Assembly (NCBI GenBank): GCA_014323765.1
Contig: JACONM010000010.1
Location: 188,125 to 252,124, forward strand
Direction of reading: 5' to 3'
DNA: 64,000 nt
Source of the DNA: Cellvibrionales bacterium
GTDB lineage: Bacteria; Pseudomonadota; Gammaproteobacteria; Pseudomonadales; GM7GCV1
The position numbers and the translations under genes were made by a program. Position 1 is the stretch's first letter. Each line of letters starts with the position of its first letter. Below the pieces are notes generated by a model. That model did not search any database. It was not told the DNA's origin and saw nothing but the letters and a program-made list of their open reading frames with translations. This document shows positions 34,293 through 54,623 of this stretch, one piece after another.

Positions 34293-34303
34293 AAAGCCCT
34301 GCC

Positions 34304-39110: not shown

Positions 39111-40076
39111 ATGAAGATTGGCGGTTTTCAAGAAGCCGTGCTGCATGTCAGTGACCTGCGGCACTACCAGCATTTTTGGCAAACCATTGGCGGCTGGCGG
39201 TTGCTTTGCGCCGGGTCGCTGGAGCCGCAGTGGCAGGCTATCTGGGGCCTGAATTGCGGCGGTCGGCAGGCGTTATTGGGCAACCTAGGCGATAGCCGCG
39301 GGACTGTACGGCTGATTCAATTAGACGAGATTCCCGCGTTGCAAATTCGTAGCGATGCGCAGGCTTGGGAAGTGGGTGGCATTTTGGATTTAAATATTCG
39401 GGTGTTGGATATTGCCCGCAAACACCGCCAAATGCAGCGGCGTGGCTGGCGCGGTAGCAGCAATCCCGTTCGGTGGCAATGGGGGCAGACCGAAATTATC
39501 GAATGGCTGGGGCATGGGCCGGACGGGGTGTCACTGGCTTTGATTGAACGCATCGTCCCGCCTTTGGACGGTTTTGCAAACCTGCGAGAATTCAGCTGTT
39601 TGATTAACTCCACCCAAATTGTTACAGACCTGAATGTAACCCGGGCTCTGTTTGAAGAAGTGCTGGATTTTAAGGTGGTGCGACACAGCATCGGTTCACA
39701 ACAGCAGCCGGGAGAAAATGTATTCGGCCTGCCGCACTCGCTGATCCATGCCTTGCCCCACGAAGTTATTGTGCTGCACCCGGCGGGTATTATCGATGGT
39801 TCCATCGAATTGATTGGGTTTAAGGGTTTAAGTGGTCGCGATTTTTCAGTCCGTGCTCGACCCGCTAATTTGGGCATTGCTGCGTTACGCTTTCCGGTCG
39901 ATGATATTGGGGCATTGGAAAAACGCCTAAAAAGCCATGGAACACCCATTCGTCATGGGCCTATTCGAATACCGCTAATTCCCTATGGCGAGATCTGTAT
40001 GTTGGCCATACAAACTCCTGATGGGGCTTGGCTGGAGTTTTATCAGCAGATGTCGACTGCTGGGATGCAGTCATAG
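39111..40076 (+). CDS. two-domain VOC-family protein (glyoxalase/extradiol dioxygenase-like)
   Basis: 321 aa made of two repeats of a VOC-like module (FQEAVLHVSDLRHYQHFW... and INSTQIVTDLNVTRALFEEVLDF...). Confidence 0.5.
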   Translation: MKIGGFQEAVLHVSDLRHYQHFWQTIGGWRLLCAGSLEPQWQAIWGLNCGGRQALLGNLGDSRGTVRLIQLDEIPALQIRSDAQAWEVGGILDLNIRVLDIARKHRQMQRRGWRGSSNPVRWQWGQTEIIEWLGHGPDGVSLALIERIVPPLDGFANLREFSCLINSTQIVTDLNVTRALFEEVLDFKVVRHSIGSQQQPGENVFGLPHSLIHALPHEVIVLHPAGIIDGSIELIGFKGLSGRDFSVRARPANLGIAALRFPVDDIGALEKRLKSHGTPIRHGPIRIPLIPYGEICMLAIQTPDGAWLEFYQQMSTAGMQS

Positions 40077-40139: not shown

Positions 40140-41117
40140 TTAAATGGTTAAGACAATTTTACCCACATGCTGACTGCTTTCCATCAGTCGATGCGCATCC
40201 GTAGCATTCTCTAAGGGAAAGGTTTTTGCCATGACAGGCTTTATAACTTGGCGACTAAAAAGCGGCCAAACCTGAGTGACGAGATCTTGGGCAATCGCCG
40301 CTTTGTCTTCAATAGGACGGGTGCGCATGGTGGAACCGGTGAGTATCAGCTGTTTGAGCATGACCGGCATCAGGTCTACATTGACTTTAGAACCATGTAA
40401 GAATGCGATGGAAACAATGCGCCCGCCGAATGCAGCCGCTTTGATATTCTTTTGAATATAATCGCCGCCCACCATATCCAAAATCACATTTGCTCCCATG
40501 CCGTCGGTTTCCCGTTTGACGGTTTCGCTGAAATTTTCGGTGCGGTAATTGATGGCCAGATCGGCCCCTAATTGTCGGCAGCGGTCGCATTTTTCAGGGC
40601 TGCCCGCGGTGATGAAAACTTTGGCACCAAAAGTTTTTGCCAACTGAATAGCGGTTGTGCCTATGCCGCTGCTGCCGCCGTGTATCAATACGGTTTCGCC
40701 CGCCTGTAAACCGGCGCGGCGGAATAGATTGTCCCATACTGTAAAGTAAGTCTCTGGCAGGGTGGCTGCTTCCAGCAGGCTTAGGGACGGCGGCACCGGC
40801 AGACAGGTATCTTGATGGGCGGTGGCGTATTCGGCGTAACCGCCGCCTGGCAACAGGGCGCAGACTTGATCTCCCACCTGCCATTTACCGACCTGCTCGC
40901 CAATATCGATTACCTCACCCGCTACCTCCAAGCCCGGTAAATCGGAGGCCCCTTTGGGCGCGGGATATAGCCCCTGACGCTGTACTATGTCGGGGCGATT
41001 AACCCCGGCGGCGGCAACTCGGATCAATACTTCTTGGTCTCGTGCTTTTGGAATCGGTCGCTCCACCATAGAGAGAGTGCCGCCATTCGTGAAGCTGGCG
41101 ATCTCAATACAGCGCAT
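40140..41117 (-). CDS. NAD(P)H:quinone oxidoreductase (zeta-crystallin/Qor MDR family)
   Basis: Motifs: AAGVNRPDIVQRQGLYP, PGLEVAGEV, IHGGSSGIGTTAIQLAK. Refined start is the ATG at 41117. The ORF is open to TTG 41186. Confidence 0.8.
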   Translation of the reverse strand: MRCIEIASFTNGGTLSMVERPIPKARDQEVLIRVAAAGVNRPDIVQRQGLYPAPKGASDLPGLEVAGEVIDIGEQVGKWQVGDQVCALLPGGGYAEYATAHQDTCLPVPPSLSLLEAATLPETYFTVWDNLFRRAGLQAGETVLIHGGSSGIGTTAIQLAKTFGAKVFITAGSPEKCDRCRQLGADLAINYRTENFSETVKRETDGMGANVILDMVGGDYIQKNIKAAAFGGRIVSIAFLHGSKVNVDLMPVMLKQLILTGSTMRTRPIEDKAAIAQDLVTQVWPLFSRQVIKPVMAKTFPLENATDAHRLMESSQHVGKIVLTI

Positions 41118-41186
41118 GGTGGAAAAATGATAATAAAAAGCCGATGATGCGCTTAAAACAGTCAACAGTTCTGTTGCGCTGTTCAA

Positions 41187-43055
41187 CTAGTTAGAAGCTG
41201 AAATATCTGGGGCAACGGGCGGTATTAGGCCAGTTTCCTCTTTGCAGCGGGCCTTAATCTGTTCAATCGGCGGGCCAAAATTGAATAAAGGTGGCTCGGC
41301 GGCACGCTCGCTGCGCATTTTCTCACGCAAAGATGCGGTCGCCTGTGTATCGACCACACCATTGTCAATGACCACTCCGTAACGTTTGGCCCCCGCCGGG
41401 CTTACTAGATTGCGCTTGACATCAGCCAGCACCTTGTCTGGATCACGGGCCAGCGGATCGCCCCAGCCGGCACCGCCCCAAGTGTTGAAGTAGAGCAGAT
41501 CTCCCGCCCGCACTTTTATACTCTCGCATTTAGCTGGCAGGTTTTCTTCCGTGCCATCGGTGCGCACTAGCAATTTAGTGGAACGCATGCCGACCTCACC
41601 GCCGAGTACGCCCCACGGATAGGTCAGCCAGCGGTCATCGTGAATGGCGATTTCCCCGTCGCAGAGAAAGCGATAGGCCACGCTTAAACCATTGCCACCG
41701 CGGTGCAGGCCGGCACCACCGGAGTCGGAGATGGTGGCGTAGCGTTCAATGCGTAGAGGAAAATAGGATTCGATAAACTCGCAAGGCACATTGGTAAAAC
41801 CGGGCCACAGGGAGTGCCCGTCTGGGCCATCGCCCACCGGACGACCGGGGATGCCGCCAAAGCCGATCTGGAATAATTGAAACCAGTCGCCTTTCTCGTC
41901 GTAGCCGGAATAGAATAGGTGGGGCGAGTCGGAAAAACCGGCCGCGTTGAGCATCTGTTGCGGTGCGCCGGAACCGAGGAGTGCGCCTAATACATCAAAA
42001 ATGCGTCCCAATGCATGGGTGCGACCGGAAAGCGGGGCTGGAAAGCGGGGTTTTAGGATGGTGCCTTCTGGGATGCGTACATCCACCAGATCATAAAAGC
42101 CATCATTGAAAACGATATGGGGGTCCACCACGTTAATAGTGAACGAGCCGAAAAACATTTTGAACATGTCTTCCGACAAATAAAAGTTAATGGAGGACTG
42201 TGCTTGGGGGTCGGTACCGGCAAAATCGAAGATGGCTGTATCGCCCTCGCGCCACATGCTGCATTTGAGTTTGTAGGGGCCGACACCCATGCCGTCATCG
42301 CAGATATAATCCTCAAATACCCGTGGTTCTTCCGGGATAAAGTTTTGGATTATGTGATGCATGGCCGCACGGTTGCGCTCCAACATGGTTTCCATGGCGG
42401 TGTGCAGGATGTCATCGCTGAAACGCTCGGCAATTTCCTTTACCCGTTTGGCGGCGGTATTGCAGGCGGCGACTAGGGCATTTAGATCAAAACGATTCCA
42501 TTGGGGGGTGCGCACATTGTGCAAGATCAGCTCCAATACATCGCTTTGCAATTCGCCTTTTTTATATAACTTGGTAGGCGGAATGCGGATGCCTTCCTGA
42601 AAAATAGTGGTGGCTTTAATGGGAATGGAGCCCGGCACCATGCCGCCGTTGTCAGACATATGCCCAAACATGGCCGACCAAGCAATATGCCTGCCGCCCT
42701 TGAAAATGGGCAGCAACACCAGCCAATCCGGTAGGTGAGAGACCGCCGCATTGCACATGTAGGGGTCGTTAGTGAGCAGAATATCGCCTTCTTCCAATTC
42801 GCCGTCGTAGGCATCCATAAAAGGGGCGATAAAGGAACCGAACTGGCCTACTACCATCTTGCCGTCTTTATTGGCAATCATTGGGAAGCAATCGCCCTGC
42901 TCGCGAATGCCGGGAGACATGGCGGTGCGGAATAGCACAGCATCCATTTCGATACGTGCGTTTTTTAACGCATTTTCGATAATGTCGATGGTTACCCCGT
43001 CAACCTCTATTTTTTGCAGCGGGGTGGAATTGGTTTGCTGAATTTTGACTGGCAT
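41187..43055 (-). CDS. hydantoinase B/oxoprolinase family, beta subunit (HyuB-like)
   Basis: 622 aa. N-terminus DGVTIDIIENALKNARIEMDAVLFRTAMSPGIREQGDCFP, typical of Hydantoinase_B. Confidence 0.85.
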   Translation of the reverse strand: MPVKIQQTNSTPLQKIEVDGVTIDIIENALKNARIEMDAVLFRTAMSPGIREQGDCFPMIANKDGKMVVGQFGSFIAPFMDAYDGELEEGDILLTNDPYMCNAAVSHLPDWLVLLPIFKGGRHIAWSAMFGHMSDNGGMVPGSIPIKATTIFQEGIRIPPTKLYKKGELQSDVLELILHNVRTPQWNRFDLNALVAACNTAAKRVKEIAERFSDDILHTAMETMLERNRAAMHHIIQNFIPEEPRVFEDYICDDGMGVGPYKLKCSMWREGDTAIFDFAGTDPQAQSSINFYLSEDMFKMFFGSFTINVVDPHIVFNDGFYDLVDVRIPEGTILKPRFPAPLSGRTHALGRIFDVLGALLGSGAPQQMLNAAGFSDSPHLFYSGYDEKGDWFQLFQIGFGGIPGRPVGDGPDGHSLWPGFTNVPCEFIESYFPLRIERYATISDSGGAGLHRGGNGLSVAYRFLCDGEIAIHDDRWLTYPWGVLGGEVGMRSTKLLVRTDGTEENLPAKCESIKVRAGDLLYFNTWGGAGWGDPLARDPDKVLADVKRNLVSPAGAKRYGVVIDNGVVDTQATASLREKMRSERAAEPPLFNFGPPIEQIKARCKEETGLIPPVAPDISASN

Positions 43056-43074
43056 GTTCGTTTCTCCTGTGCAA

Positions 43075-45135
43075 TTAGCTGGTCGGGTTAAGCAGTAAAT
43101 TGCCTACTTTATCCACAGTGGCGACGTACCCGGGTAGAACAACCGTGGTGGAATCCATTTCCATGATAATCGCCGGCCCCGGCACCACAGTGCCCACGTT
43201 CAGTTTGCTGCGCTCATACAGGGGCACCTCGTAATCCTGTCCCTCGTAATAAAATCGGCTGCGTTGCACTATGCAATCTTCCAGCGCCACTGGGTCGCTG
43301 CTGATTACCGTCTCGGCAATGGCGCGGGTCTTGGCGCGCACCACGGCGCGAATCATCAGGATTTCATGGCCGTCTTGCAGTTTGAAAGTAAATAGCTGTT
43401 CATGCTCTTTGTCGAAGGCGGCGGTTACTAGGCCAATGCCCTTTTCACGGATGCTGGCCTCGTCAAAATCAATCGTTATTTGAAAGGCTTGGCCGGCGTA
43501 GCGCAGGTCTGCTTGAAAACTGACTTCCAAATCTTGCGGGTCGATGCCGTCGGCAATTAGGGATTCGCTGGCTCGCTGCTGTAACTCTAAAAGATCGGAT
43601 AGCAGGCCATCGCTGTTAATGTCTTCTGCCATGCGAATGTAGGTGCGCGCCGCCTCGTCCTGTACTTGGGTGGTGGAATCTCCGTAGGCGCAGAGTACGC
43701 CGGGGCCGGGCGGTATAATGACTGGCCAAGCACCGGTGAGAATGCCTAGCGCATTGGCGTGTAGCGGGCCGGCACCGCCAAAACCCACTAGGGAAAAATC
43801 GCGTGGGTCGTAGCCCTGCTCCACCGACACAATGCGCAATGCACCGAACATGGATTCATTGACCACTTTAATAATGCCTTCCGCCGCTTCCATTAACCCA
43901 ATTCCCGCGGCATCGGCCACCTGTTGTACTGCTTTAATGGATGCTTCACGATTGATTTGCATGGCTCCGCCTAGTTGCGCATCGGCGGGTAAATAACCGA
44001 GCACTACGTTGGCATCGCACACGGTGGCTTGCTCGCCGCCCTGCATATAACAGGCCGGGCCGGGCACGGCACCGGCAGATTCTGGCCCCACCCGCAAGGC
44101 TTTGGTTAGTTCAGGGACGAAAGCCAAGGAACCGCCACCGGCCCCGACTGTGCGCACATCCACCGAGGGTGCCCGCACTCGCACATCGCCAACCACGGTT
44201 TCCCGCCGTACCCGCGCTTTGGCATTTTGAATTAGAGCCACATCGGTGGAAGTGCCGCCCATATCAAAAGTCAGGATATTGTCGTAACCTGCCTTGCTGC
44301 AAAAATAAATGGCACCGGTAACCCCACCGGCCGGACCGGACATTAATAGATTGACCGGGGATTCCGCCGCCGCCCGACCGGAAGCTAGGCCGCCATCAGA
44401 GCGCAGCAGCGATAATTTGACATCATCGCCCATACGCGATTTTAATGCCTGCTCCAAATTATTTACATAGCGGGCCACTTCTGGGCGGACGAAGGAATTG
44501 ACTACCGTGGTCTCGGTGCGCTCGTATTCCTGCATTTCTGGAACCACTTCGGAGGAAATGGAAATTGGCGTATCCGCAAAAACCTCGGCAGCAATGGCTT
44601 TGGCTTTTTTCTCATGCGCACCATTTACATGCGCATTGATAAAACAAATGGTCAGGGCACCGATCTTGTCTTTGGTGCGCAACGTTTGCAGATCGGCACG
44701 GAGCCGATCTTCATCTAATTTTTTATGGATGCTGCCATCGGCATCAATGCGCTCGTGCGCGCCTATGGTCAATTCCAGCGGTGCCAATAGCGGTTTTTTA
44801 TTGAAGGTAACCCAACCACCCAAACCGCCCGGGCAGAAAGAACGTGCCACTTGCAAAGTTTGCTCGTAGCCAGCGGTGGTGACTAGCCCCACTTTGGAGC
44901 CACGCCCTTCAAGTACGGCGTTGGTGGCAGCCGTGGTGCCGTGCATCACGCGGTTTATTTGCATCGGGTCCACTCCCGATTCGCTGCAAATGCGCTCGAC
45001 CCCGTGTAATACCCCTTTGGACTGGTCTTCAGGGGTCGAAGGCACTTTAGCCGTGTGGGTCTCGCCCGTGGCCTCGTTAATTAGCAGCAGGTCGGTAAAG
45101 GTACCGCCCACATCCACACCAAGCCGATAGCTCAT
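43075..45135 (-). CDS. hydantoinase A/oxoprolinase family, alpha subunit (HyuA-like, ATP-dependent)
   Basis: 686 aa. N-terminus MSYRLGVDVGGTFTDLLL (ASKHA-fold phosphate-1 motif) and FDMGGTSTDV. Confidence 0.85.
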   Translation of the reverse strand: MSYRLGVDVGGTFTDLLLINEATGETHTAKVPSTPEDQSKGVLHGVERICSESGVDPMQINRVMHGTTAATNAVLEGRGSKVGLVTTAGYEQTLQVARSFCPGGLGGWVTFNKKPLLAPLELTIGAHERIDADGSIHKKLDEDRLRADLQTLRTKDKIGALTICFINAHVNGAHEKKAKAIAAEVFADTPISISSEVVPEMQEYERTETTVVNSFVRPEVARYVNNLEQALKSRMGDDVKLSLLRSDGGLASGRAAAESPVNLLMSGPAGGVTGAIYFCSKAGYDNILTFDMGGTSTDVALIQNAKARVRRETVVGDVRVRAPSVDVRTVGAGGGSLAFVPELTKALRVGPESAGAVPGPACYMQGGEQATVCDANVVLGYLPADAQLGGAMQINREASIKAVQQVADAAGIGLMEAAEGIIKVVNESMFGALRIVSVEQGYDPRDFSLVGFGGAGPLHANALGILTGAWPVIIPPGPGVLCAYGDSTTQVQDEAARTYIRMAEDINSDGLLSDLLELQQRASESLIADGIDPQDLEVSFQADLRYAGQAFQITIDFDEASIREKGIGLVTAAFDKEHEQLFTFKLQDGHEILMIRAVVRAKTRAIAETVISSDPVALEDCIVQRSRFYYEGQDYEVPLYERSKLNVGTVVPGPAIIMEMDSTTVVLPGYVATVDKVGNLLLNPTS

Positions 45136-45214
45136 CGGATTTTCCTCCTGTCCCTTTTAGGTTCACCCTGCGCGAGCATGTTTGTCTGGCCGAGCATGTC
45201 AACTATAGCAACCA

Positions 45215-46123
45215 TTATAGCAGCCCTTTGTCACGCTGTGATCTGAGCCAGCCAAGTGCATTGCCGCCCGCGTTGCTTGCGGTTAGGTCGGCAGCCAGTT
45301 CCGCCGCCGCGACTAGTTTGCGCAAATCTATCCCGGTTGCAATGCCCATTTGCTCGAATAATAACACTAGATCTTCGGTTGCCACATTGCCGCTGGCTCC
45401 CGGCGCAAAGGGGCAACCGCCTAGCCCGGCGATGGATGCGTCAAAGCGGCGAACGCCTACCTCAAATGCGGCGGTGGCATTGGCCACCCCGAAGCCGCGG
45501 GTATCGTGAAAATGCGCCCCTAATTGGCCTGTGCCATGTTCGGATATCAGGGCGGCGTACAGGGATTTAACCTGCGCGGGGTTGGCGGCACCTATGGTAT
45601 CCGCTATCACCACGGCGGTGGCCCCCGCTTGCAAAAAAGTGCGCGTCATCGCTCGCACCGTTTGCGCCTTTACCGGGCCTTCAAAAGGGCATTCCCAAGC
45701 GGTGGCAATGTAGGGAATTATCGCCACGTCGTCCGTTTTCGCCCGTGCGATAATTTCCGTTGTTAGGGCAATCGCCTGCTGGTTGTCCATGCGAATGTTT
45801 TTCTCATTCATGGTGTTGCTGGCGGCCACCGGTATATTTAGGGATTGAATGCCCGCCGCCCTAGCCTGCTCGTACCCCCGCATGTTGGAAATCAATGCGG
45901 AGAAGTGGGTGTTAGCGGCGGGCAGGCCGGCGGCAATTTGGTCGGTGTTGGCCATGGCGGGCACGGCTTTGGGGCTGACAAAGCTGCCGATTTCTACCGC
46001 CGGCAGGCGCGCCGCGACTAGGGCCTCGATCAAGCGTAGACGCTCGGCCGGGGATAAAACCTTGGGCTGATTTTGTAGGCCGTCGCGCGGGCCGACATCG
46101 GTGATAATTACTGTTTCAGTCAT
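45215..46123 (-). CDS. HMG-CoA lyase-like (HMGL family) C-C lyase, copy 2
   Basis: 302 aa with DVGPRDGLQN and GGCPFAPGASGNVATEDLV. Its ATG overlaps the upstream stop (ATGA). Confidence 0.85.
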   Translation of the reverse strand: MTETVIITDVGPRDGLQNQPKVLSPAERLRLIEALVAARLPAVEIGSFVSPKAVPAMANTDQIAAGLPAANTHFSALISNMRGYEQARAAGIQSLNIPVAASNTMNEKNIRMDNQQAIALTTEIIARAKTDDVAIIPYIATAWECPFEGPVKAQTVRAMTRTFLQAGATAVVIADTIGAANPAQVKSLYAALISEHGTGQLGAHFHDTRGFGVANATAAFEVGVRRFDASIAGLGGCPFAPGASGNVATEDLVLLFEQMGIATGIDLRKLVAAAELAADLTASNAGGNALGWLRSQRDKGLL

Positions 46124-47319
46124 GCTGCATAACCCGCCGTTTTAGCCGCGGCAATTTCCTCATCGCTCATATTCAACAGTTCACCGAGCACCCGCTCGGT
46201 ATCGGCACCGAGCAGCGGGGCCGCGCTGAACTGCTCTTCGCCGGAGCGCGATAGCTTGATGGGGTTGCCTGGGCCCTTAGTGCTGCGCCCGTCTGGGTGA
46301 TGGAGATCGACTACCATATTGCGGTGCAAAATTTGCGCATCGGACAAGGCTTGGCTAAACCGATTTACCGGGGCACAGGGGATGCGCTGCGCTTCCAGCT
46401 TTTCTAGCCAATAGGCGGAGGTGTTGGTGCTGAGAATCTCGTTGAGCTTGCGGTTGATCATGTCGCGTTCTTCCCAGCGACCCGGCTGCCCATCGTATTT
46501 GGGGTTTTCAAACTCAGGGCAATTTACTGCTTTCTTTAGATTTTTCCAAAAATTGTCGGTGATAACCGCAATCACCACATGCCCATCGGATGTCTTAAAG
46601 GTGTTATACGGAACATGCACAAAGTGAGAATTGCCGATCGGGTAGGGGTCTTTACCGGAAAGAAAATACATGGTGGCCATATAATTGAGCATGGATATTT
46701 GGCAGTCGAGCATGGAAATATCGACGTGCTGCCCTTGGCCGCTGCGCTCGCGTTCATACAGTGCCGCTAAAATGCCCATGACCCCAAACATGCCGCCGCC
46801 TAGATCGCCGATGGGAATGCCGGCGCGCATCTGATGGTCGCGGTTTTCGCCGGTGATCGACATGCCGCCGCCGATGGCTTGAGCCACTTGATCAAAAGCT
46901 GGACGTTGGTTGGCGGGGCCATCGGAGCCGAAGCCGGAGATCACACAGGTAATAATTCTGGGATTGACGCGGCTCAGGTTGGGATAATCAATTTTCAAGC
47001 GTTCTGGTACCCCGGCCCCAAAGTTGCTAATCACAATATCGGATTTTTCTACTAGGCGATAAAACAGCTGCAAGCCCTGTTCGCTTTTCAGGTCCAGTGC
47101 CACACTTTGCTTGTTGCGGTTTAGGGTGATGAAGTAGGCTCCCATGCCGCCCAGTGAGTTTTGCGGATCTTTTGCTAACAGCTTGCGTGTGCCCTCGCCC
47201 TGTAGCGGTTCCACCTTGATGGTCTCTGCCCCTAGGTCCGCTAGGATCATGCTGCCGTAGGGCCCGGAGAGCATGTGGGTGAGGTCCAAAATGCGGACGT
47301 TTTCTAGGGGTCTGTTCAT
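46120..47319 (-). CDS. family III CoA-transferase (CaiB/BaiF), copy 2
   Basis: Refined start is the ATG at 47319 (MNRPLENVRILDLTHMLSGPYGSMILADLGAETIKVEP), which parallels copy 1. The ORF-track start at 47352 is TTG. Confidence 0.85.
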   Translation of the reverse strand: MNRPLENVRILDLTHMLSGPYGSMILADLGAETIKVEPLQGEGTRKLLAKDPQNSLGGMGAYFITLNRNKQSVALDLKSEQGLQLFYRLVEKSDIVISNFGAGVPERLKIDYPNLSRVNPRIITCVISGFGSDGPANQRPAFDQVAQAIGGGMSITGENRDHQMRAGIPIGDLGGGMFGVMGILAALYERERSGQGQHVDISMLDCQISMLNYMATMYFLSGKDPYPIGNSHFVHVPYNTFKTSDGHVVIAVITDNFWKNLKKAVNCPEFENPKYDGQPGRWEERDMINRKLNEILSTNTSAYWLEKLEAQRIPCAPVNRFSQALSDAQILHRNMVVDLHHPDGRSTKGPGNPIKLSRSGEEQFSAAPLLGADTERVLGELLNMSDEEIAAAKTAGYAA

Positions 47320-47425
47320 TATCGATGGGTGCTTGGATAATCGGTGGGCCAATACGGGTTAAAGAGGCCCGGTACCCTAGCAACTCTTGGTTTTTTTACG
47401 TTGCCGGGCACCGGGCACAAACGGT

Positions 47426-48242
47426 TTAGAGGGTGGATATAAAGTCTATCACCGCCTGCGCGGTTTTCTCCGGCTGCTCGATCATGCAATAAGTGCCACC
47501 GCCCTTGGGTATGGTTTTTAGCTGCGCCTCCGGAAACGTGCTGCAAAAACTCATCGGCCAATGCTTTGTTCGCGGGGTTGTTGGTGCCGAGGACCCCAGA
47601 TTCGCCCATGAGTACCAGAGTCGGCACGGTGATTTTAGCGAGGTCGCTGGTGAAGTCATTGGTGGAGCAGATGCTCATTATTTCATCAATGGTCTCAATG
47701 GCAAAATTGCGCTCGAAGCATTCGGCTTCCCACTTTGCCATCTCCCCTTGCTTGGGTTGAAACACATTTTCGGCGGCACAGCCAATCCAAGTGGTCAAGC
47801 AAGCGAGCGCATCGTAGCCGAAGGTCTCGCAGACACCGGAAAAATAGCTGAACGCTTTGCGGAAGCCGGGGTCGGCTTTGAACATGGGGTAGGTGATCAG
47901 GGCTTTGACGCGGTCTTGGTAACGGGCGGTGTAGCGGATGGAGGTGGGCGAGCCGGTGGAGGTGCCCCAGAGCACAGCATCTTTAATGTCCAGCGCATCG
48001 AGGATTATCTCTAGGTCGTCCACCCAAGTATCCTGATTATAGGATTTGCCGGGCCAAGCACGATCGGACTGGCCAGAGCCGCGGTAATTCCAGTTGATGA
48101 CTTGATAATGCTGGGCCAGCAGGTCGGTGACGAAATCCCACTGATTGTGCAGCAAGCCAAAGCCGCCGGACAACACTAGCGGCTGCCCCTGCCCTTTGAT
48201 CTCGTACCAGAGATTCACACCCTTATCGGTAACGAAAGCCAT
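47426..48242 (-). pseudogene. alpha/beta-fold hydrolase with an apparent +1-nt frameshift near 47531..47552
   Basis: The frame from 48242 has a GTSTG nucleophile elbow and reads normally to ...KALADEFLQHV, then becomes R/G/P-rich until 47319. The overlapping frame (ORF 47426..47659) supplies a canonical C-terminus, PEAQLKTIPKGGGTYCMIEQPEKTAQAVIDFISTL. Confidence 0.6.
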
Positions 48243-48287
48243 GGTAAATACCTCTCAATCTGTTTAGTGTGAAATCAGGTCGGTCGC

Positions 48288-50819
48288 TTAAAACCGATAC
48301 TCTAGGTCTACGCCTAGCGATTGGCGCGGCGAGTCGTGGACGAAGGAGCCGCCGAACTCTGGGGCGGTTACTACTTCGTTTAGGTATTCCTCATCGGTGA
48401 TATTTTTGCCCCATGCGGCGACGGTTAGGTTTTCGCTGCTGAAGGCTACCCGCAAATTGAACAAGTCATAGGGGTCGCGCTTGGTGCGACTAAATTCGCC
48501 TTCGCCAAACCCCCTTGCCGTAAAGAGGTTGGGGAGCTTGTTGGCCTGCACCGCATGGAACCAAGTATCGCCGACATAGGCCCAATCCAGCCGAGCGGTC
48601 ATTTGCCAGCCGCGGGATATATCTGTGTTGAAGGTGGCTCCTAGGTTGTAAGTGGAATCGGCGGCGTAGGGCACTTCGTTGCCGACGGTGTAGGGGCGGT
48701 TTTGGCTTTTTTCAATTTCCCCGCTCAGCCAACTGCCGGCGGCGTAAAGAGACAACTGGTCATTGATGGCTATATTGGCATCCAGTTCAAATCCTTGAAT
48801 AGAGACTTCATCGATATTGGTAACAGTCCGCAACAAACCGAAGGGGCCGACGTAGAATTCGAAAAACTGCATATCGTCCACATCGGTATTGTAGGCGGCG
48901 GCATTGAGGGTGAAGCGACCGTCCGCCCAGCTGGATTTCAGCCCCAACTCAAGTGAACGTGATACTTCTTTCTCAAATTCGTCGTTGATATTCAAGACCC
49001 GAAGATCAAATGGAGTCGTTTCGCCTGCTCGGGTCAAGCCACGATAAAACTCTTCGATAGTCGCCTTAGTTCCCTGCGAATTGAAGCCGCCGCTTCTAAA
49101 GCCAACGCCATAGCTGGCGTAGAGAGACCAACTGTCCGCGGGTTTCCAGTTTAGGGTCAGCTTGGGTTGTGCTTGAGAAAAATCCTTGCTGCGGTCGTCA
49201 ATGGTGTCGTTAAAACGAAAAGCCGGATTGATAGGATCAAGTTCTCCGTTTCCATCAGCATCTATGGTGGCCGCATCCTCATTGGGTACTTGGTTGGAGA
49301 CGTCGCGCTCCTCACGGTCGTAGCGCAGGGCGAAGGCGACTTCTAGGTCCGGAGATAGATCGTATGCCACTTGACCGAACAGGGCGTAGATGCGGCTGTC
49401 GAAAATATCGTGGTACAGCAGATCGGTTGGGCTATCGCTGTCCGCGGCGTTGTAGGCCCGCCTAGCAATCGGCCTCTCTCGGCCTTGATCATCCGCTGTT
49501 TGTTCGCCTTGAGCCACCACCACTTCACGCTCCACATCGCCAAAATAAACCCCGCCCAGCCAGCGTACAGACTCTCCCCCCCCGGCTGGCGAGGCAAACC
49601 GAAGCTCTAGGCTAAAGTCTTTTTGGTTGCGCTCTTGGTATTGATAGCCATCGCAGGTGGTGGGGCTGTAAGGTGATAAAAATTCAGTAGCACCTCGAGG
49701 GTCACCAGTACCGTATCCGAACGGTGGATTGTACCGTAACGTACCATCCTCGTGATCTTTGGCTCTTGCGGCGAAAGAAGCTATACAGTGCGGCTCATTT
49801 GAATAAATATCAAAGCCAGCACTAGTGCCATCAGTCAGAAAATGATTTTCCTGATCGTTGTAGGAAAATACTCCAGTGAGATCTGCCCAATCGAGTTGAT
49901 AATCAAACTTGGTTGCAAAGTTGAAATTATCCTGTTCGTTTTCCGGTTCGATATTGGTCAGATACTGGTATTTGTGGTCGTTAACATCCTGATAAAAAGC
50001 GGGGAAACTGAGTGCCGCTGCCGCATCCACCAAATGCACCGACGCATTGTAGCCAATAGCCGCCCCCTCAGCTTGACTCAGCGCAATGCGGGTATCCCAT
50101 GCCATGGTATCGGTGGGGGACCAGATAAGGCGGGCATTGAGGGCTTGCTCTTCGTAATTATCGACCACTTTTTTATTGAGGTAGTCGTTGCGGAAGTGGC
50201 CGTCGGTCTCGCGGCTTACTAGGCTTAGTCGGCCGGCCAATGATTCGCCGAGCGGGCCGCTGACAACACCGCGCAGCACTTGGGTGGAGTTATTGCCAAT
50301 GCCTAGCCCCAGTTTGCCTTCCGTCTCATCGCCGGGTTTTTTGGTATTGACGATGATCGCGCCAGCTAGAGCATTGCGACCGTAGAGGGCCCCTTGCGGA
50401 CCTTTGAGGATCTCGATTTGTTGAACATCGGCGAGTTCACGGTTGAAAGCGTTGGGGTTAGTCAGGAGTACACCGTCCACCACGTAGGCGAAGCTGGCTT
50501 CCGCATCGCGGCCTGTGTTAATGCCGCGGATGCTGACTTGGGTATCGCCGATCTCCGCCGTGTTGGTCATGGTTACCCCGGGGGTTAGCATGATGAAGTC
50601 CTCGGGCCGCTCTATGCCGGCATCGCGGATGGCACCCTCGGTGAGCACGGTAATAGAGTCCGGCACATCTTGCAGGCTTTCTTCCCGCAGCCGGGCGGTG
50701 ATCACTATTTCTTCCACGACCATGCCTGAGTCGGGGGCGGCTAATAGCGGCGCGGTTGGCATTATTGCGGCGGTCAACAGGAAAGCTGCGGCTAGGCGGG
50801 TTTTGCTAATGGGTTGCAT
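48288..50819 (-). CDS. TonB-dependent receptor (TBDR-2)
   Basis: 843 aa with a signal peptide, plug motifs (EEIVITARLREESLQDVPDSITV, IEILKGPQGALYGRN), and a C-terminal ...DLEYRF. Confidence 0.9.
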   Translation of the reverse strand: MQPISKTRLAAAFLLTAAIMPTAPLLAAPDSGMVVEEIVITARLREESLQDVPDSITVLTEGAIRDAGIERPEDFIMLTPGVTMTNTAEIGDTQVSIRGINTGRDAEASFAYVVDGVLLTNPNAFNRELADVQQIEILKGPQGALYGRNALAGAIIVNTKKPGDETEGKLGLGIGNNSTQVLRGVVSGPLGESLAGRLSLVSRETDGHFRNDYLNKKVVDNYEEQALNARLIWSPTDTMAWDTRIALSQAEGAAIGYNASVHLVDAAAALSFPAFYQDVNDHKYQYLTNIEPENEQDNFNFATKFDYQLDWADLTGVFSYNDQENHFLTDGTSAGFDIYSNEPHCIASFAARAKDHEDGTLRYNPPFGYGTGDPRGATEFLSPYSPTTCDGYQYQERNQKDFSLELRFASPAGGGESVRWLGGVYFGDVEREVVVAQGEQTADDQGRERPIARRAYNAADSDSPTDLLYHDIFDSRIYALFGQVAYDLSPDLEVAFALRYDREERDVSNQVPNEDAATIDADGNGELDPINPAFRFNDTIDDRSKDFSQAQPKLTLNWKPADSWSLYASYGVGFRSGGFNSQGTKATIEEFYRGLTRAGETTPFDLRVLNINDEFEKEVSRSLELGLKSSWADGRFTLNAAAYNTDVDDMQFFEFYVGPFGLLRTVTNIDEVSIQGFELDANIAINDQLSLYAAGSWLSGEIEKSQNRPYTVGNEVPYAADSTYNLGATFNTDISRGWQMTARLDWAYVGDTWFHAVQANKLPNLFTARGFGEGEFSRTKRDPYDLFNLRVAFSSENLTVAAWGKNITDEEYLNEVVTAPEFGGSFVHDSPRQSLGVDLEYRF

Positions 50820-50851
50820 GGTTTGACTCCGTTTTTGTGTTGAGGGGCGGT

Positions 50852-51250
50852 TTATACCAGCGGGTTGCTGTTATTCATGTACACGTACACCTCTTCAAAC
50901 TTGCCGTTACGGACTCGCCAGAAGTTGGTGTTTTCGAATTGCGTTTTCTGGCCGTTTGTATCGACTAGCTCGGCGAGAAAACGGGCGGTTATGCGACCGT
51001 GCTTGGCATCTACGGTGCAGACGAAGTCGTGGTGCCGGATGCTGTCGTAGGTGGCAAAAAAGTCGCGGAACATGCGACCGATGCCCTCTTCGCCGGCGTG
51101 GACTGTGAAAGCGGTTTGCACTGTGAATAGGGCGGTGTCATTGAAGCAATCCATGACTGCATCAAAGTTCTTTTTATCCACATTGGCGAAATAGCGTTGG
51201 GTCGCTAATTCGACAAGCTCTTCTCGGGATAGAGTTGGTTCGTATTGCAT
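50852..51250 (-). CDS. NTF2/SnoaL-like fold protein, paralogue A
   Basis: 132 aa. RYFANVDKKNFDAVMDCF...FWRVRNGKFEEVYVYM is typical of the SnoaL-like/NTF2 superfamily. Confidence 0.6.
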   Translation of the reverse strand: MQYEPTLSREELVELATQRYFANVDKKNFDAVMDCFNDTALFTVQTAFTVHAGEEGIGRMFRDFFATYDSIRHHDFVCTVDAKHGRITARFLAELVDTNGQKTQFENTNFWRVRNGKFEEVYVYMNNSNPLV

Positions 51251-51281
51251 GACTGCGGCCTCCTATTTTGGGCTGTCTGGG

Positions 51282-51677
51282 TTACTTGAGCAGGTTTTCA
51301 CCGCTCATATACACAAAGACCCGGCTGAATTTGCCGTCTTTTAGGTAGAAGCGGTTGCAGTTTTCGTAGCGTTGCTCTTCGTCGTTTAGGTCGTGCGGCT
51401 CTATTTCGACGGTGAATTGGGAGCAGATGGATTCGCTTTGCGGGTCGACGGTGTGGACGAAATTGCCGTGCCAGATGCGACCATTGCTGGCGAATAGCCC
51501 CTCGAACATGGTGCGGATGCCCTGCTCGCGGCCTTCATGCAGGGTGTTGGAGGTCATTTCGCGGATCGAGGCATCCGGCTGGAAGCAATCCAGCACTTTT
51601 TCCATGTCGCGATTGTCTACGCCATCGAAGTAACGCTTGGTGACTATGTCCACATAGTATTCGTAGGGGTACGTCAT
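51282..51677 (-). CDS. NTF2/SnoaL-like fold protein, paralogue B
   Basis: 131 aa. It is colinear with the neighbouring paralogue (RYFDGVDNRDMEKVLDCF...FYLKDGKFSRVFVYM). Confidence 0.6.
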   Translation of the reverse strand: MTYPYEYYVDIVTKRYFDGVDNRDMEKVLDCFQPDASIREMTSNTLHEGREQGIRTMFEGLFASNGRIWHGNFVHTVDPQSESICSQFTVEIEPHDLNDEEQRYENCNRFYLKDGKFSRVFVYMSGENLLK

Positions 51678-51713
51678 GGCTTTAATCTCCTCAGATTTGC
51701 ATGTTTGAAGGGT

Positions 51714-52472
51714 TTAGGGGCGCACCTGCACATCGGCATCCTTGGGCACTTCCGGGGTGGGGAAGGCTTTTTTGGAGTGACTTAGGCCCAGCTGTAAAAA
51801 TATCTCGCACAGTTTGTAGGTGATGAGGCCCGGGTTGATGACCGGCACCGGCAGGTTTTTTTGCAGATAGTCGGCGGATTGGTGCATGGTGGTGGAGCCT
51901 AGGACGATCACATCCGCGCCGTCCTCTTCGATGGCTTTGCGCGACTCGGCTTCGAGTTTGGCGAAGATGACCTCTTCTTTGCCGGCCAGCAGTTCGGCCA
52001 GATCCGGGCGGGTTTTGATCGAGCGCATGGAGGCTAGGCGGGGCCATAGGTGGTATTCGGTCAGGGTTTTTTCGTAGAGCGGGAACCATTCGTCCCACAT
52101 GGTGATGATGGAAAATTTCTTGCCGAGCGTCATAGCGGTGTGGAAGGCGACCTGCCCAGGGGCCAGCACTGGAATATCTAGGCGCGAGCGCAGGGCGGCT
52201 AGGCCGGAATCGCTGACGGTGTCGATGCAGAGTGCGGCGAACCCCTCTTCCTGCGCCCGCACCCCGGCTTGGAAGACGGTCCAATCCATCAGCAGCATGT
52301 CGTGGTAGGAATCGCCGAGGGCCGCGCCCCAAGTTACCGCCTCGAAAACGGGTTCAAAGTCGGGGTGGACTAGGTGGGCCGGTAGTTGCGCGGCGCGATT
52401 TGCCACGCCGGCCTCGTCCATGGGGATGGGAACGACAATTTTTACACGCTTGGGTTGCGTAGTCCGTATCAC
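51714..52472 (-). CDS. Asp/Glu/hydantoin racemase-family protein
   Basis: 252 aa. The N-terminus VKIVVPIPMDE and the LCIDTVSDSG / VIVLGSTTM half-sites resemble the hydantoin racemase family. It has a GTG start and is the first gene after the sigma-54 promoter. Confidence 0.65.
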   Translation of the reverse strand: MIRTTQPKRVKIVVPIPMDEAGVANRAAQLPAHLVHPDFEPVFEAVTWGAALGDSYHDMLLMDWTVFQAGVRAQEEGFAALCIDTVSDSGLAALRSRLDIPVLAPGQVAFHTAMTLGKKFSIITMWDEWFPLYEKTLTEYHLWPRLASMRSIKTRPDLAELLAGKEEVIFAKLEAESRKAIEEDGADVIVLGSTTMHQSADYLQKNLPVPVINPGLITYKLCEIFLQLGLSHSKKAFPTPEVPKDADVQVRP

Positions 52473-52497
52473 TTCTTTGCGGTCTGCCTACCCCAAT

Positions 52498-52533
52498 AAA
52501 CTAAGCAAGAACTGTAAACTAAGCAAGAACTGT
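52498..52533. repeat. perfect 18-bp tandem duplication (aaactaagcaagaactgt x2) overlapping the -12 element
   Basis: Read directly: copy 1 is 52498..52515 and copy 2 is 52516..52533. Confidence 0.9.
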
Positions 52534-52537
52534 GCCA
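52523..52537 (-). promoter_or_regulatory. sigma-54 (-24/-12) promoter TGGCACagttcTTGC
   Basis: The reverse complement of 52523..52537 is TGGCAC-N5-TTGC, an exact consensus core. It lies about 50 nt upstream of the racemase-like gene and downstream of a sigma-54 enhancer-binding protein gene. Confidence 0.7.
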
Positions 52538-52578
52538 ATTTTTGTTTTGTGTATTTTTTCGTAAAAAATAAATATGAA

Positions 52579-52591
52579 AATCAAAGTGTTA
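52579..52591. promoter_or_regulatory. IHF-like site (AATCAAAGTGTTA fits WATCAANNNNTTR) in an AT-rich spacer
   Basis: It is located about 45 bp upstream of the -24 element, the usual position between the UAS and a sigma-54 core promoter. An 18-bp dyad, CAAAATgaaattATTTTG, at 52655..52672 is a candidate UAS. Confidence 0.3.
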
Positions 52592-52742
52592 GCTAATAAT
52601 TGGCTTTTCAAAATCGGGGTGAGGTGGGCCGCTGAACATGGCGGTGCGTAAGTTCAAAATGAAATTATTTTGCAATTTGGTGAAACAATCGGTGAAAACG
52701 GTGCGTCGAGCCGCTGGTGCTGCCGGGTGGAATGGCGGGCGG

Positions 52743-54623
52743 TCAGGGGGGACTCTTCAGCCGCCGCCACAGGGTCGTCTGGCTAATGCCGAGGTAACCA
52801 CTGACTTTGGCTTTATCGCCACCGAACTTTTTCATGGCATCCATGATCAGGCTCCATTCCTGCTCTTTGAGGGTGCCGGCTGGGGCTGCGGCGGAAGGAG
52901 TCGGAGGATCGCTTTTCTTGGACCGTTCCGCGGACCATTCCGGCAACAGAGAGGGTAGGGCATGCACAAATTGTTCCGGATCGGTAAATATCGGGCGACT
53001 CACCAGCAAGCGTTCCACTGCATTTTCCAGCTGGCGCACATTGCCTGGCCATGCGTAGCTGCGAAGTTGCTTGCCACAGAGGGAGAAAATTTCCGCTATA
53101 TCGACTTCTAAGCGATACCGCTGTTTGATTTTTTCTGCAAAATAGTTGGCGATCGCGGGAATATCGGCGGGTCGCTCGCGCAGGGCCGGCAAATCGATGG
53201 TGAAGACGTTGACGCGATAAAACAGGTCTTCGCGGAAGGTGCCGGCTTTTACCGCATCTAGCAAATTCTGATTGGAGGCGCACACAAACTTCAGGTGCAG
53301 GGATATTTCTTTATTGGTGCCGAGCGGCCTTATTCTGCGGTCTTGCATGGTGCGCAACAGTTTGGCCTGTTGGGTTAGGGGGAGCTCGCTGATTTCATCG
53401 AGGAAGAAAACGCCATTGTTGGCGGCTTCCAACAAGCCGGTGCGCCCGCCGCGCTTGGAGGTGGTGAAGGCCCCATCGACGTAGCCGAATAGCTCGCTTT
53501 CGAATAATTCTTCCGGTACGGCACCGCAGTTAATCGCGATAAACTGGCCGCCCTTGAACGGCCCGCTGCGGTGAAGTTCGCGGGCGATTAATTCTTTGCC
53601 GGTGCCGGTCTCCCCGGTAATCAACACGGTGCCGGCCGTGGCGGCATAGGTGGGCAAAATGCGGTGGATCTGCGCCATTTTTTCAGACGCATAAACCATC
53701 TGATGATCGGTCGGTGTTTGCCCTTTGGCTGCGCTGGTTTTGGCCTCGCCGGTGCGCATACTGTATAGATAGGCGCGTTTCTTGCCTTTGATGTTGAGTA
53801 GCTGTCGGGTAAAAAAACGCGGGGTGCCATTGAGTTCTACATGGAATTGTTTGCCGCCGCGCCCGGTGCCCGTCTGAATGAGTTGCGCCAGCCGCAAGGC
53901 ATCTGCCTCGTCGGCGGCACCGAGCTTGGCCATGGCGGTCTGGTTATAGCGCAACAGATCGCCAGCAAAGTTCGCCACCAGCACCGGCGGCCCGGCACCT
54001 TCTAGAACCGAATTATCAATGGCGTGGTTTAATTTTTGCTCGATAGTTTCCTCGCCCTTCGCGATGGCGGCTTCGATAAGTTCGCGGCAGGATGAGCGCG
54101 AATAGACGAGCAGGCTTTTCAAATTTTGTTGCTCGGCCAGATCGCACACATGGCTGGAACCTATCACGACATCGATGTTTTCCGGAATATGCAAATACAG
54201 AAGTTCACGCGCTTCATTCGGGGTGCTGTAGGTTTTATGGATAAGTTCCGCAGTGAAGTACTGGCGAATAAAGTCCAGCACCCGATATTCTTTTTGGTAG
54301 GTGATTAGCAGTATTTTTTTGCCGATCTTGGCCGCTTTATGCAGGGCATCCAAAATGTCCCCTTCGGTGACGGCGATTCCTAGGGTGGGCACGGATAGCA
54401 GCGACTGTAAATAGCTGGCATTGGCACCGGCACTAATGACTAGATCGGCATCCTTACCCTCTACCAGTTCGTCAACGCTGCTGTCCTGCGTTAGGATGTG
54501 GTCGGCGATCTCAAAATGAGCCTGCCCGGCAAATTCTGGGTGAACCACGCTCATCAGCTGGCTGAATTTGCGATAGCCGACGATCAATATCTTTGGTTTA
54601 TCCCGACCGATTATTCTCCACAT
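52743..54623 (-). CDS. sigma-54-dependent transcriptional activator, PrpR family (PrpR_N sensor + AAA+ + Fis HTH)
   Basis: 626 aa. The N-domain resembles PrpR (KILIVGYRKFSQL...ISAGANASYLQ). AAA+ motifs are VLITGETGTGKELIAREL, GAFTTS (GAFTGA variant) and FFLDEISELP. The C-terminal HTH is YLGISQTTLWRRLK. Confidence 0.9.
   Translation of the reverse strand: MWRIIGRDKPKILIVGYRKFSQLMSVVHPEFAGQAHFEIADHILTQDSSVDELVEGKDADLVISAGANASYLQSLLSVPTLGIAVTEGDILDALHKAAKIGKKILLITYQKEYRVLDFIRQYFTAELIHKTYSTPNEARELLYLHIPENIDVVIGSSHVCDLAEQQNLKSLLVYSRSSCRELIEAAIAKGEETIEQKLNHAIDNSVLEGAGPPVLVANFAGDLLRYNQTAMAKLGAADEADALRLAQLIQTGTGRGGKQFHVELNGTPRFFTRQLLNIKGKKRAYLYSMRTGEAKTSAAKGQTPTDHQMVYASEKMAQIHRILPTYAATAGTVLITGETGTGKELIARELHRSGPFKGGQFIAINCGAVPEELFESELFGYVDGAFTTSKRGGRTGLLEAANNGVFFLDEISELPLTQQAKLLRTMQDRRIRPLGTNKEISLHLKFVCASNQNLLDAVKAGTFREDLFYRVNVFTIDLPALRERPADIPAIANYFAEKIKQRYRLEVDIAEIFSLCGKQLRSYAWPGNVRQLENAVERLLVSRPIFTDPEQFVHALPSLLPEWSAERSKKSDPPTPSAAAPAGTLKEQEWSLIMDAMKKFGGDKAKVSGYLGISQTTLWRRLKSPP

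Follow-up and report, generated by a model that had tools for sequence, protein, structure and literature searches.

Cyclic imides and related N-heterocycles are degraded in bacteria by an imidase and a half-amidase, and in the fungal nicotinate (hxn) route by an ene-reductase, a cyclic imidase and an amidase. Itaconate degradation relies on the family III CoA-transferase Ict, the hydratase Ich and the citramalyl-CoA lyase Ccl, which together yield acetyl-CoA and a keto acid (PMC13491972; PMC12290011). In this work, we analyzed a 64-kb stretch of a Cellvibrionales bacterium genome (contig JACONM010000010.1; hereafter the window, numbered from its first nucleotide), in which positions 40140-54623 hold 11 co-oriented genes on the minus strand, an operon of approximately 12 kb behind a PrpR-like activator. 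Downstream of the activator gene, these encode an allantoin/hydantoin-racemase-fold protein (hereafter Race), two NTF2/SnoaL-fold proteins, a TonB-dependent receptor, an alpha/beta-fold protein, a family III CoA-transferase, a lyase of the 3-hydroxy-3-methylglutaryl-CoA (HMG-CoA) lyase family (HMGL), HyuA- and HyuB-type subunits (HyuAB) and a quinone/enone oxidoreductase. Gene families were assigned with Pfam and NCBIfam profiles, complemented by sequence searches of the PDB and by AlphaFold2 (AF2) models compared using Foldseek, and the two profile collections recovered every family named in the original prediction, which had been made from the DNA sequence alone, at the place given there. 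Our preferred interpretation, which we hold tentatively and at a little under an even chance, is that these genes form a modular operon for the breakdown of a small exogenous organic compound, with a cyclic amide or imide as the most likely substrate.

Such a pathway would resemble itaconate degradation in the activation of a branched dicarboxylate by a CoA-transferase, in hydration and in C-C cleavage. It differs in its lyase, a member of the HMG-CoA lyase family where Ccl, the (S)-citramalyl-CoA lyase, is a CitE-type enzyme, and in having Race and the NTF2 proteins instead of a MaoC-type hydratase, an acyl-CoA dehydrogenase and a PrpD-family isomerase. With the cyclic-imide routes it would share the proposed order of C=C reduction, imide opening and amide hydrolysis leading to a (hydroxy)dicarboxylate. 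Unlike their metal-dependent or deacetylase-type imidases, however, HyuAB is of an ATP-dependent family not homologous to them, and those pathways lack a downstream CoA-transferase and lyase.

The original prediction knew of no characterized pathway with this combination of genes. Full-text literature searches found no paper describing the cluster, and neither they nor the NCBIfam equivalog models revealed a characterized counterpart, but it is by no means singular: a scan of species-representative genomes located relatives of Race at 68-78% identity, and none closer than 78%, in at least 592 genome stretches, revealing a widespread module. More than 3,000 relatives of Race were found in databases, the best 120 at 69-100% identity. 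The carriers are mostly Sphingomonadales, together with Pseudomonas, Rhodanobacter, Dokdonella, Acidovorax, Hydrogenophaga and Thiohalocapsa. Gene neighborhoods were compared by tblastn of the window proteins against the 80 best of the at least 592 loci, 47 of which had full 20-kb flanks. All 47 carry one or more NTF2 genes, and the CoA-transferase and HMGL lyase are present in 44 of them. HyuA and HyuB occur in 38/47, the TonB-dependent receptor in the same 38 loci, a GntR/FCD regulator in 37/47 and an isochorismatase-family hydrolase in 27/47, every one of these with HyuAB. The second NTF2 copy is found only in loci that have HyuAB and the receptor. The cluster is modular, with Race, NTF2, CoA-transferase and lyase forming a near-invariant core (44/47) and with HyuAB and the receptor as accessory components (38/47).

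Gene order varies among the carriers. The closest relative, locus L065, has on one strand CoA-transferase-HMGL-HyuA-HyuB-activator-receptor-Race-NTF2-NTF2, at 48-80% identity to the window proteins, while in Sphingomonadales the units Race-NTF2-NTF2-receptor(-isochorismatase) and HMGL-HyuA-HyuB(-CoA-transferase) diverge from a GntR gene. The Pseudomonas loci without HyuAB encode Race, one NTF2 protein, two ene-reductases of the OYE/FAD Fe-S-flavoprotein type, the CoA-transferase, the lyase and a BNR protein, and those of Rhodanobacter and Dokdonella have the order Race-NTF2-CoA-transferase-HMGL-BNR-RND-DUF1302-DUF1329. Examples of these HyuAB-less variants, in which the core stands with the two flavoproteins or with the BNR/RND/DUF1302/DUF1329 set, are L018 (11228-15615) and L025 (13250-19664). 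The best NCBIfam matches of the flavoproteins are a mycofactocin-system OYE, BaiCD and bilirubin reductase, all below cutoffs. The BNR/RND/DUF1302/DUF1329 envelope set has been tied in the literature to catabolic clusters for hydrophobic compounds.

The Race-NTF2-NTF2 trio also occurs alone, in Luminiphilus syltensis NOR5-1B (L095, 9230-10818), in L096 (9245-10809) and in L003; within 10 kb of the trio in L095 and L096, no CoA-transferase, lyase or HyuAB was found. In L096, light-harvesting (LHC) and PucC genes are located approximately 4 kb from the trio. In Neorhizobium, more distant paralogues of Race (45-50% identity) have HyuB-HyuA and a cysteine hydrolase as neighbors, and in Variovorax a cysteine hydrolase and two polysaccharide-deacetylase-type proteins, so this fold repeatedly pairs with cyclic-amide or amide hydrolases. 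The paralogues of Tistrella mobilis pTM1 (L088), Variovorax paradoxus (L089) and a Neorhizobium petrolearium plasmid (L090) also lack the racemase cysteines discussed below. Downstream of each of them, in place of NTF2 genes, comes another and more divergent Asp/Glu-racemase-family gene. Their neighbors include PrpD-family and phosphoenolpyruvate (PEP)-mutase/isocitrate-lyase-family proteins, a tautomerase, an FAD oxidoreductase and ABC transporters, and these three loci look like a sister pathway with a different C-C lyase. The window itself matches only contigs of sponge metagenomes, and over the compared stretches it is 100% identical to those of marine sponges (L091-L094; sources SRR3667357/PRJNA320446, the AGAR17-1 samples SAMN04939364 and SAMN04939365, and SRR10406138). 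Given also the lack of a species-representative genome with a closer Race, the window probably derives from an uncultured gammaproteobacterium living with sponges.

The second line of evidence for a functional unit is the promoter. The exact -24/-12 element foreseen about 50 nucleotides (nt) before the first gene is indeed present: TGGCACagttcTTGC reads on the minus strand from 52537 to 52523 (52523..52537), an exact pattern match located 50 nt before the GTG start codon at 52472. By itself, the motif is not above chance, as TGGCAC-N5-TTGC has 2 exact matches in the window and 9 matches, against 8.4 expected, when up to one mismatch is allowed. The second exact match (56162-56176, minus strand) lies within a membrane-fusion-protein-like gene on the plus strand (55690-57102) and is probably due to chance, since no obvious minus-strand gene follows closely downstream. 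The significance of the element comes instead from its position and its conservation across orthologous loci. Among the gammaproteobacterial loci in which the orthologous Race gene comes first, a GG-N10-GC element is found 56-99 nt upstream of that gene in L010, L011, L014, L018, L025, L035 and L058, with CTGC at -12 in L010 and TGGCAT at -24 in L014 and L058, and the upstream sequences of L029, L055 and L066 carry one-mismatch forms of the exact pattern. The element thus holds the same place in the orthologous loci of Pseudomonas, Rhodanobacter and Dokdonella, and we predict that a sigma-54-dependent promoter, conserved in the gammaproteobacterial loci, precedes the first gene.

The intergenic region between this gene and the activator gene (52473-52742) is AT-rich, and an IHF-like site is present in it, as the original prediction stated. 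The control region proper (52575..52677) contains two imperfect palindromes, I1 (52575-52610) and I4 (52650-52677), which are candidate binding sites for the activator, and a match to the IHF consensus (WATCAANNNNTTR, 52579-52591) situated between the activator gene and the promoter; the whole window contains 3 matches of this kind where 1.5 would be expected, and this one is not significant by itself. A repeat search also detected an 18-nt perfect tandem duplication (two copies of cagttcttgcttagttta, 52497..52532, minus strand), which starts inside the -24/-12 spacer and duplicates the -12 TTGC 18 nt downstream without a matching GG. The duplication is identical in three sponge-metagenome contigs.

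The activator gene (52743..54623, minus strand) encodes a protein with a PrpR_N sensor domain (1e-26), an AAA+ domain (Sigma54_activat, PF00158, 3e-58) and a C-terminal Fis-type helix-turn-helix (HTH_8). It has the features of a sigma-54 enhancer-binding protein, including a Walker A motif (GETGTGK, residue 337) and a variant of the GAFTGA loop (GAFTTS). The original prediction placed it in the PrpR family, and it is PrpR-like but not PrpR proper: it scores below the cutoffs of the PrpR equivalogs (TIGR02329, 419.9 vs 499.2; NF011953, 393.4 vs 703) and adjoins the Race operon, not prp genes. The resemblance to the control of prpBCDE therefore extends to a PrpR_N, AAA+ and HTH_8 protein beside a -24/-12 promoter with an IHF-like site, whereas here the activator stands by unrelated genes, and prpB-prpC-acnD-prpF, confirmed at 982-6867, are 46 kb from the operon. 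Homologues of the activator are found inside the cluster in L065 (48% identity) and adjacent to it in L029 (41%). Upstream of the activator gene by 65 nt and in the same orientation is a gene for a 304 amino acid protein (54689-55603, minus strand). Three metagenome assemblies include this gene call, and the product lacks a Pfam match even at E = 0.1 as well as a homologue in any of the fetched loci.

As to the layout of the operon, the ATGA overlap at 46120-46123, where the start codon of the lyase gene overlaps the stop codon of the CoA-transferase gene, was read as predicted. The gaps span 19-106 nt, with this single 4-nt overlap, and not the approximately 20-80 nt proposed originally, because the gene models of the alpha/beta protein, the CoA-transferase and the oxidoreductase were revised. 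Internal terminator signals (21 against 23.4 expected) and internal sigma-70-like sites are not above chance, and no intrinsic terminator was found downstream of the last gene. Of the single transcription unit originally proposed, the co-oriented set behind a sigma-54 promoter is retained, with co-transcription being read from the gene spacing alone.

The first gene of the operon encodes Race (51714..52472, minus strand; PF01177, Asp_Glu_race, 1e-26). We preferred the GTG start at 52472 over the internal ATG picked by gene callers because an invariant N-terminal KxxKxxVPI motif is encoded upstream of that ATG. The AF2 model (pLDDT 86) has allantoin racemases as its top Foldseek matches (3qvk and 5lg5; TM score 0.80, 24-26% identity). 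Race shares this fold and PF01177 with the allantoin/hydantoin racemases HpxA, AllR and HyuE, but differs from them invariantly at the active site: the catalytic Cys79 and Cys184 of HpxA align with Thr85 and Ser193 of Race, both residues being invariant in 20 family members and retained in paralogues at 45-55% identity. Race thus cannot act as a two-thiol racemase, and of the Asp/Glu/hydantoin-racemase-like protein originally proposed the fold stands but not the catalytic cysteine pair.

Downstream of Race, NTF2 protein 1 (51282..51677, minus strand; SnoaL_2, 1.8e-9) and NTF2 protein 2 (50852..51250, minus strand; SnoaL_2, 4.8e-10) are, as anticipated, paralogues, with 38% pairwise identity. 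NTF2 protein 1 has homologues at 70-85% identity, and a sequence search of the PDB found no relative with E < 0.05 for either protein. The AF2 model of NTF2 protein 1 (pLDDT 92) has ketosteroid isomerase and limonene epoxide hydrolase as Foldseek neighbors at 12-20% identity. The structure comparisons of Race and NTF2 protein 1 accordingly yielded generic folds only. No NCBIfam equivalog applies to Race, to the two NTF2 proteins, to the CoA-transferase or to the HyuA and HyuB subunits.

HyuA (43075..45135, minus strand; Hydant_A_N, Hydantoinase_A and Hydant_A_C) and HyuB (41187..43055, minus strand; Hydantoinase_B, 5e-142) share with the cyclic-amide hydrolases N-methylhydantoinase, CapAB and 5-oxoprolinase the two-subunit architecture and all Pfam domains, and these enzymes are also their best PDB and NCBIfam relatives. 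Against the PDB, HyuA scores 430 bits to N-methylhydantoinase, 387 to the caprolactamase alpha subunit, 298 to acetophenone carboxylase and 221 to acetone carboxylase, and HyuB scores 230 to N-methylhydantoinase, 183 to the caprolactamase beta subunit, 128 to acetophenone carboxylase and 50 to acetone carboxylase (alpha). No gamma-subunit open reading frame (ORF) was found between or after hyuAB, where the oxidoreductase is the only other ORF. Taking into account the far higher scores to hydrolases and the absence of a gamma subunit, an ATP-dependent amide hydrolase appears the better reading of HyuAB than a ketone carboxylase. An acetone carboxylase was rejected on its low similarity (50 bits for HyuB) and the missing gamma subunit. 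Of the substrates suggested in the original prediction, a cyclic amide or imide is accordingly favored over a ketone. HyuAB nonetheless misses every equivalog cutoff by a wide margin: CapA scores 541 vs 1000 and CapB 194 vs 1000 (NF050156 and NF050157), and the acetophenone carboxylase (Apc) cutoffs are likewise missed by far. The context also differs from that of the caprolactam (PMC6061476), creatinine and oxoproline pathways, given that HyuAB is found here with a CoA-transferase, an HMGL lyase, NTF2 proteins and a TonB-dependent receptor.

The CoA-transferase (46120..47319, minus strand) belongs to family III (CaiB/BaiF), with a CoA_transf_3 match (2.4e-121) over model positions 1-366 of 366. 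Its likely start is the ATG at 47319, in agreement with an independent gene call of 399 amino acids. Its closest PDB matches are formyl-CoA transferase (250 bits) and succinate-hydroxymethylglutarate CoA-transferase (SUGCT; 242 bits), and its top NCBIfam matches are succinyl-CoA:mesaconate and succinate-glutarate CoA-transferases, all below cutoff (best 291.6 vs 700), so that it falls in no characterized equivalog (mesaconate, glutarate, oxalate, formyl or carnitine). In Sphingomonadales, the CoA-transferase is a different paralogue, with 28-35% identity. The adjacent lyase (45215..46123, minus strand) has an HMGL-like domain (2e-45), passes the PRK05692 cutoff (300 bits vs 246) and has HMG-CoA lyases as its best PDB matches (193-215 bits). 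It retains the catalytic motifs PRDGLQ (residue 12, Arg-Asp), HFHDT (residue 204, His-x-His) and GGCP (residue 235, Cys loop), which place it, by sequence, within the HMG-CoA lyase family. A SUGCT-like transferase together with a lyase bearing all HMG-CoA lyase motifs fits the CoA activation and retro-aldol cleavage put forward originally. Unlike HMG-CoA lyase and SUGCT, the operon lies outside a leucine (liu) context, and its lyase may act on HMG, on an acid of the citramalate type or on a larger 3-hydroxy-3-alkyl acid.

The TonB-dependent receptor (48288..50819, minus strand) has both a plug (PF07715, 1e-19) and a beta-barrel domain (TonB_dep_Rec_b-barrel, PF00593, 9e-41), as is typical of such receptors. 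By inspection, its N-terminus shows a signal-peptide-like stretch and a TonB-box-like motif (EEIVITA), and its orthologues, found with HyuAB, have 38-50% identity.

The alpha/beta hydrolase of the original prediction has the expected fold family, but neither an intact gene nor a canonical triad. The 307 amino acid ORF is the product of a +1 T frameshift in a run of five T (47545-47549, minus strand) within GAGTTTTTGCAG, where homology to the L006 and L075 orthologues switches frame in tblastn comparisons. With one T removed, the gene (47426..48242, minus strand) would encode 271 amino acids, with its stop at 47426 and a full-length Abhydrolase_6 match. The frameshift is probably real, as the same run is present in four other sponge-metagenome assemblies of the same organism. 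The serine of a GTSTG motif aligns with the esterase nucleophile, while the position of the catalytic Asp is occupied by Gly, and the region of the expected His (GGGTYCM, a stretch unaligned to any structure) lacks it in all three orthologues. The protein, with an incomplete Ser-Asp-His triad and a broken reading frame, thus falls short of a serine hydrolase, and its gene may be decaying in this lineage; L065 has no alpha/beta gene.

The last gene (40140..41117, minus strand) encodes an NAD(P)H quinone/enone oxidoreductase of the PIG3 family (TIGR02824, 484.7 vs cutoff 296.8), with a likely start at the ATG at 41117 in agreement with an independent gene call (325 amino acids). The predicted quinone oxidoreductase family is therefore right, but this is not a conserved member of the cluster: homologues lie near it in 5 of the 80 loci, and the gene is lineage-specific.

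Taking these components together, the PrpR-like activator would sense the substrate or an acidic intermediate and, with sigma-54 and possibly IHF, fire the promoter at 52523-52537, and the TonB-dependent receptor would import the compound. HyuAB would then open a ring amide bond at the expense of ATP, and an amidase, where present, would strip the remaining amide nitrogen to give a branched dicarboxylic acid; this latter role could be played by the isochorismatase-family cysteine hydrolase in Sphingomonadales and by the decayed alpha/beta protein here. Race and the NTF2 proteins may catalyze an isomerization, tautomerization or hydration, which could come before or after the steps of HyuAB and the amidase. 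The CoA-transferase would form a CoA thioester, probably from succinyl-CoA, and the lyase would cleave a 3-hydroxy-3-alkyl-acyl-CoA into acetyl-CoA (or another acyl-CoA) and a keto acid. Saturation of a C=C bond would fall to the PIG3-type reductase, and the two OYE/FAD ene-reductases of Pseudomonas may be non-homologous equivalents for this step. An accessory front end would thus comprise the receptor and HyuAB, together with the second NTF2 protein and, in some cases, an amidase.

Several observations weigh against this pathway. Eight of the 47 loci (Pseudomonas, Rhodanobacter and Dokdonella) keep the core with neither HyuAB nor amidase, and ring opening is therefore not required by the core; likewise, as the trio stands alone in L095, L096 and L003, it may be an independent unit. 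L065, the closest relative, has no amidase. Since Race lacks both catalytic cysteines and the alpha/beta protein is frameshifted and without the Asp and His, two of the proposed steps are left without a clear catalyst. In addition, neither an acyl-CoA dehydrogenase nor a MaoC-type hydratase is present in the cluster, making hydration by the NTF2 proteins an assumption. Co-transcription of the operon is plausible, as inferred only from spacing, and the proposed class of substrate is deduced from sequence comparisons.

The persistence of the core without HyuAB in eight loci would also suit a free branched unsaturated dicarboxylic or terpenoid acid (of the itaconate, citraconate or 3-methylglutaconate type), for which the core would be the whole pathway, HyuAB and the receptor being an unrelated or loosely coupled add-on. 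The logic would be that of the itaconate pathway (PMC13491972; PMC12290011), in line with succinyl-CoA:mesaconate transferase as the best NCBIfam match of the CoA-transferase and with the distant Race paralogues that sit with PrpD-family and PEP-mutase/isocitrate-lyase-family proteins. However, HyuAB, the receptor and the second NTF2 protein strictly co-occur (38/38) and are embedded in the same operons (e.g., L065), and no known hydratase family is found in the cluster, which makes this explanation unlikely. We consider it decidedly unlikely that the locus brings together two or more independent units that are merely co-located, namely the trio, with its own and possibly non-catabolic function, and a separate HMGL-HyuAB-CoA-transferase pathway. 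The trio does occur alone in L003, L095 and L096, and the two halves are divergently transcribed in Sphingomonadales; yet their linkage in 44/47 loci extends across Alpha-, Beta- and Gammaproteobacteria in several gene orders. Where the halves diverge, they share a single GntR regulator located between them, and the gammaproteobacterial loci have all their genes on one strand.

The fold of Race, that of allantoin/hydantoin racemases, and the annotation of the best structural relative of HyuAB as an N-methylhydantoinase raise the prospect of nitrogen acquisition from hydantoins or ureides, comparable to the creatinine/N-methylhydantoin route. Race would equilibrate a 5-substituted hydantoin, HyuAB would open it and the amidase would release an amino acid, CO2 and NH3, with the CoA-transferase and lyase loosely connected. 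The isochorismatase-family hydrolase, present with HyuAB in 27/38 loci, would agree with this, N-carbamoylsarcosine amidase being a member of that family. We regard this route as very improbable, however, because other residues stand in place of both racemase cysteines, the linkage to Race is tighter for the CoA-transferase and lyase (44/47) than for HyuAB (38/47), no aminotransferase or deaminase for an amino-acid product is found in the cluster, and the regulators are of the GntR/FCD and PrpR_N types, which usually sense organic acids. In a ketone-carboxylase loop, the lyase would release a methyl ketone and acetyl-CoA from a 3-hydroxy-3-methylacyl-CoA (e.g., of an isoprenoid acid), after which HyuAB would carboxylate the ketone in the manner of acetone carboxylase and the CoA-transferase would activate the beta-keto acid so formed. 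This loop has in its favor that HyuAB belongs to the superfamily of acetone and acetophenone carboxylases and that the Rhodanobacter and Pseudomonas cores lie beside the BNR/RND/DUF1302/DUF1329 set linked to hydrophobic compounds. Yet the loci with this hydrophobic-uptake set are exactly those without HyuAB, the scores of HyuB favor hydrolases (230 and 183 bits vs 50 to acetone carboxylase) in the absence of a gamma subunit, and the strict co-occurrence of HyuAB with the TonB receptor, along with its frequent association with an amidase, argues for a role upstream and not downstream. Such a loop is therefore most improbable.

For the favored uptake and opening of a cyclic amide or imide, candidate substrates could be, as pure conjecture, the tetrapyrrole-derived maleimides (hematinic acid, methyl-ethyl-maleimide and methyl-vinyl-maleimide), which form on oxidation of chlorophyll, haem and bilins. 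HyuAB would open the maleimide ring and the amidase would give a methyl-alkyl-maleate. This product is a homologue of 2-methyl-cis-aconitate and would be a fitting ligand for a PrpR-type sensor; its CoA thioester, once hydrated and cut by the HMGL-type lyase, would yield pyruvate and an acyl-CoA. The broader proposition that Race-NTF2-NTF2 constitutes a new enzyme system, pairing a thiol-less racemase fold with a heteromeric NTF2 pair, and that the cluster is the first genetic handle on the bacterial catabolism of a widespread natural cyclic imide, is a long shot.

Beyond the operon, a convergent gene for a two-domain glyoxalase-fold protein (39111-40076) separates it from a minus-strand stretch (35841-38855) in which a gene for a CurA-like NADPH enone reductase precedes the genes of a LeuC/LeuD-type dehydratase pair (35841-38032). 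This pair was considered as a maleate/citraconate-hydratase-like part of the pathway and judged probably unrelated, although it may conceivably serve as the hydratase of an alkyl-maleate: it passes the housekeeping LeuC and LeuD models, LeuC barely (563.8 vs 560.25), and LeuC lies near the cluster in 2 of the 80 loci and in L001, with LeuCD-like genes flanking L001 and L079. Further along, a catabolic island (23650-35821) encodes a second TonB-dependent receptor, two aldehyde dehydrogenases, a CpeT/CpcT-family (DUF1001, bilin-lyase-like) protein, a flavin amine oxidase, a cytochrome c, an SSF symporter, an arylmalonate-decarboxylase/EutA-like protein and an FAD aromatic hydroxylase. Between 26 and 34 kb, the window shows an unusually strong GC skew (+0.20 to +0.31) and a negative AT skew.

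The component families of this operon are known already, as is the principle of a sigma-54 catabolic operon with an outer-membrane receptor. It is the combination of genes, especially a cysteine-less racemase fold with NTF2 partners, that looks like an undescribed pathway. The gene set is found at 50-80% identity in hundreds of species of Sphingomonadales, Pseudomonas, Xanthomonadales, Comamonadaceae and marine or sponge-associated Gammaproteobacteria, which points to a common environmental substrate whose bacterial degradation is undescribed. Since culturable carriers exist, the question is directly testable: Sphingomonas astaxanthinifaciens, Altererythrobacter litoralis 1XM1-14, Blastomonas natatoria DSM 3183, Novosphingobium marinum DSM 29043, Parasphingorhabdus marina DSM 22363 and Acidovorax delafieldii have the full cluster, and Ectopseudomonas composti CCUG 59231 has the HyuAB-less variant. 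The identity of the substrate would annotate thousands of genes now called "hydantoinase", "racemase" or "SnoaL-like", would give a chemistry to the cysteine-less branch of the Asp/Glu-racemase superfamily and would yield a new pair of sigma-54 activator and ligand, of use as a biosensor.

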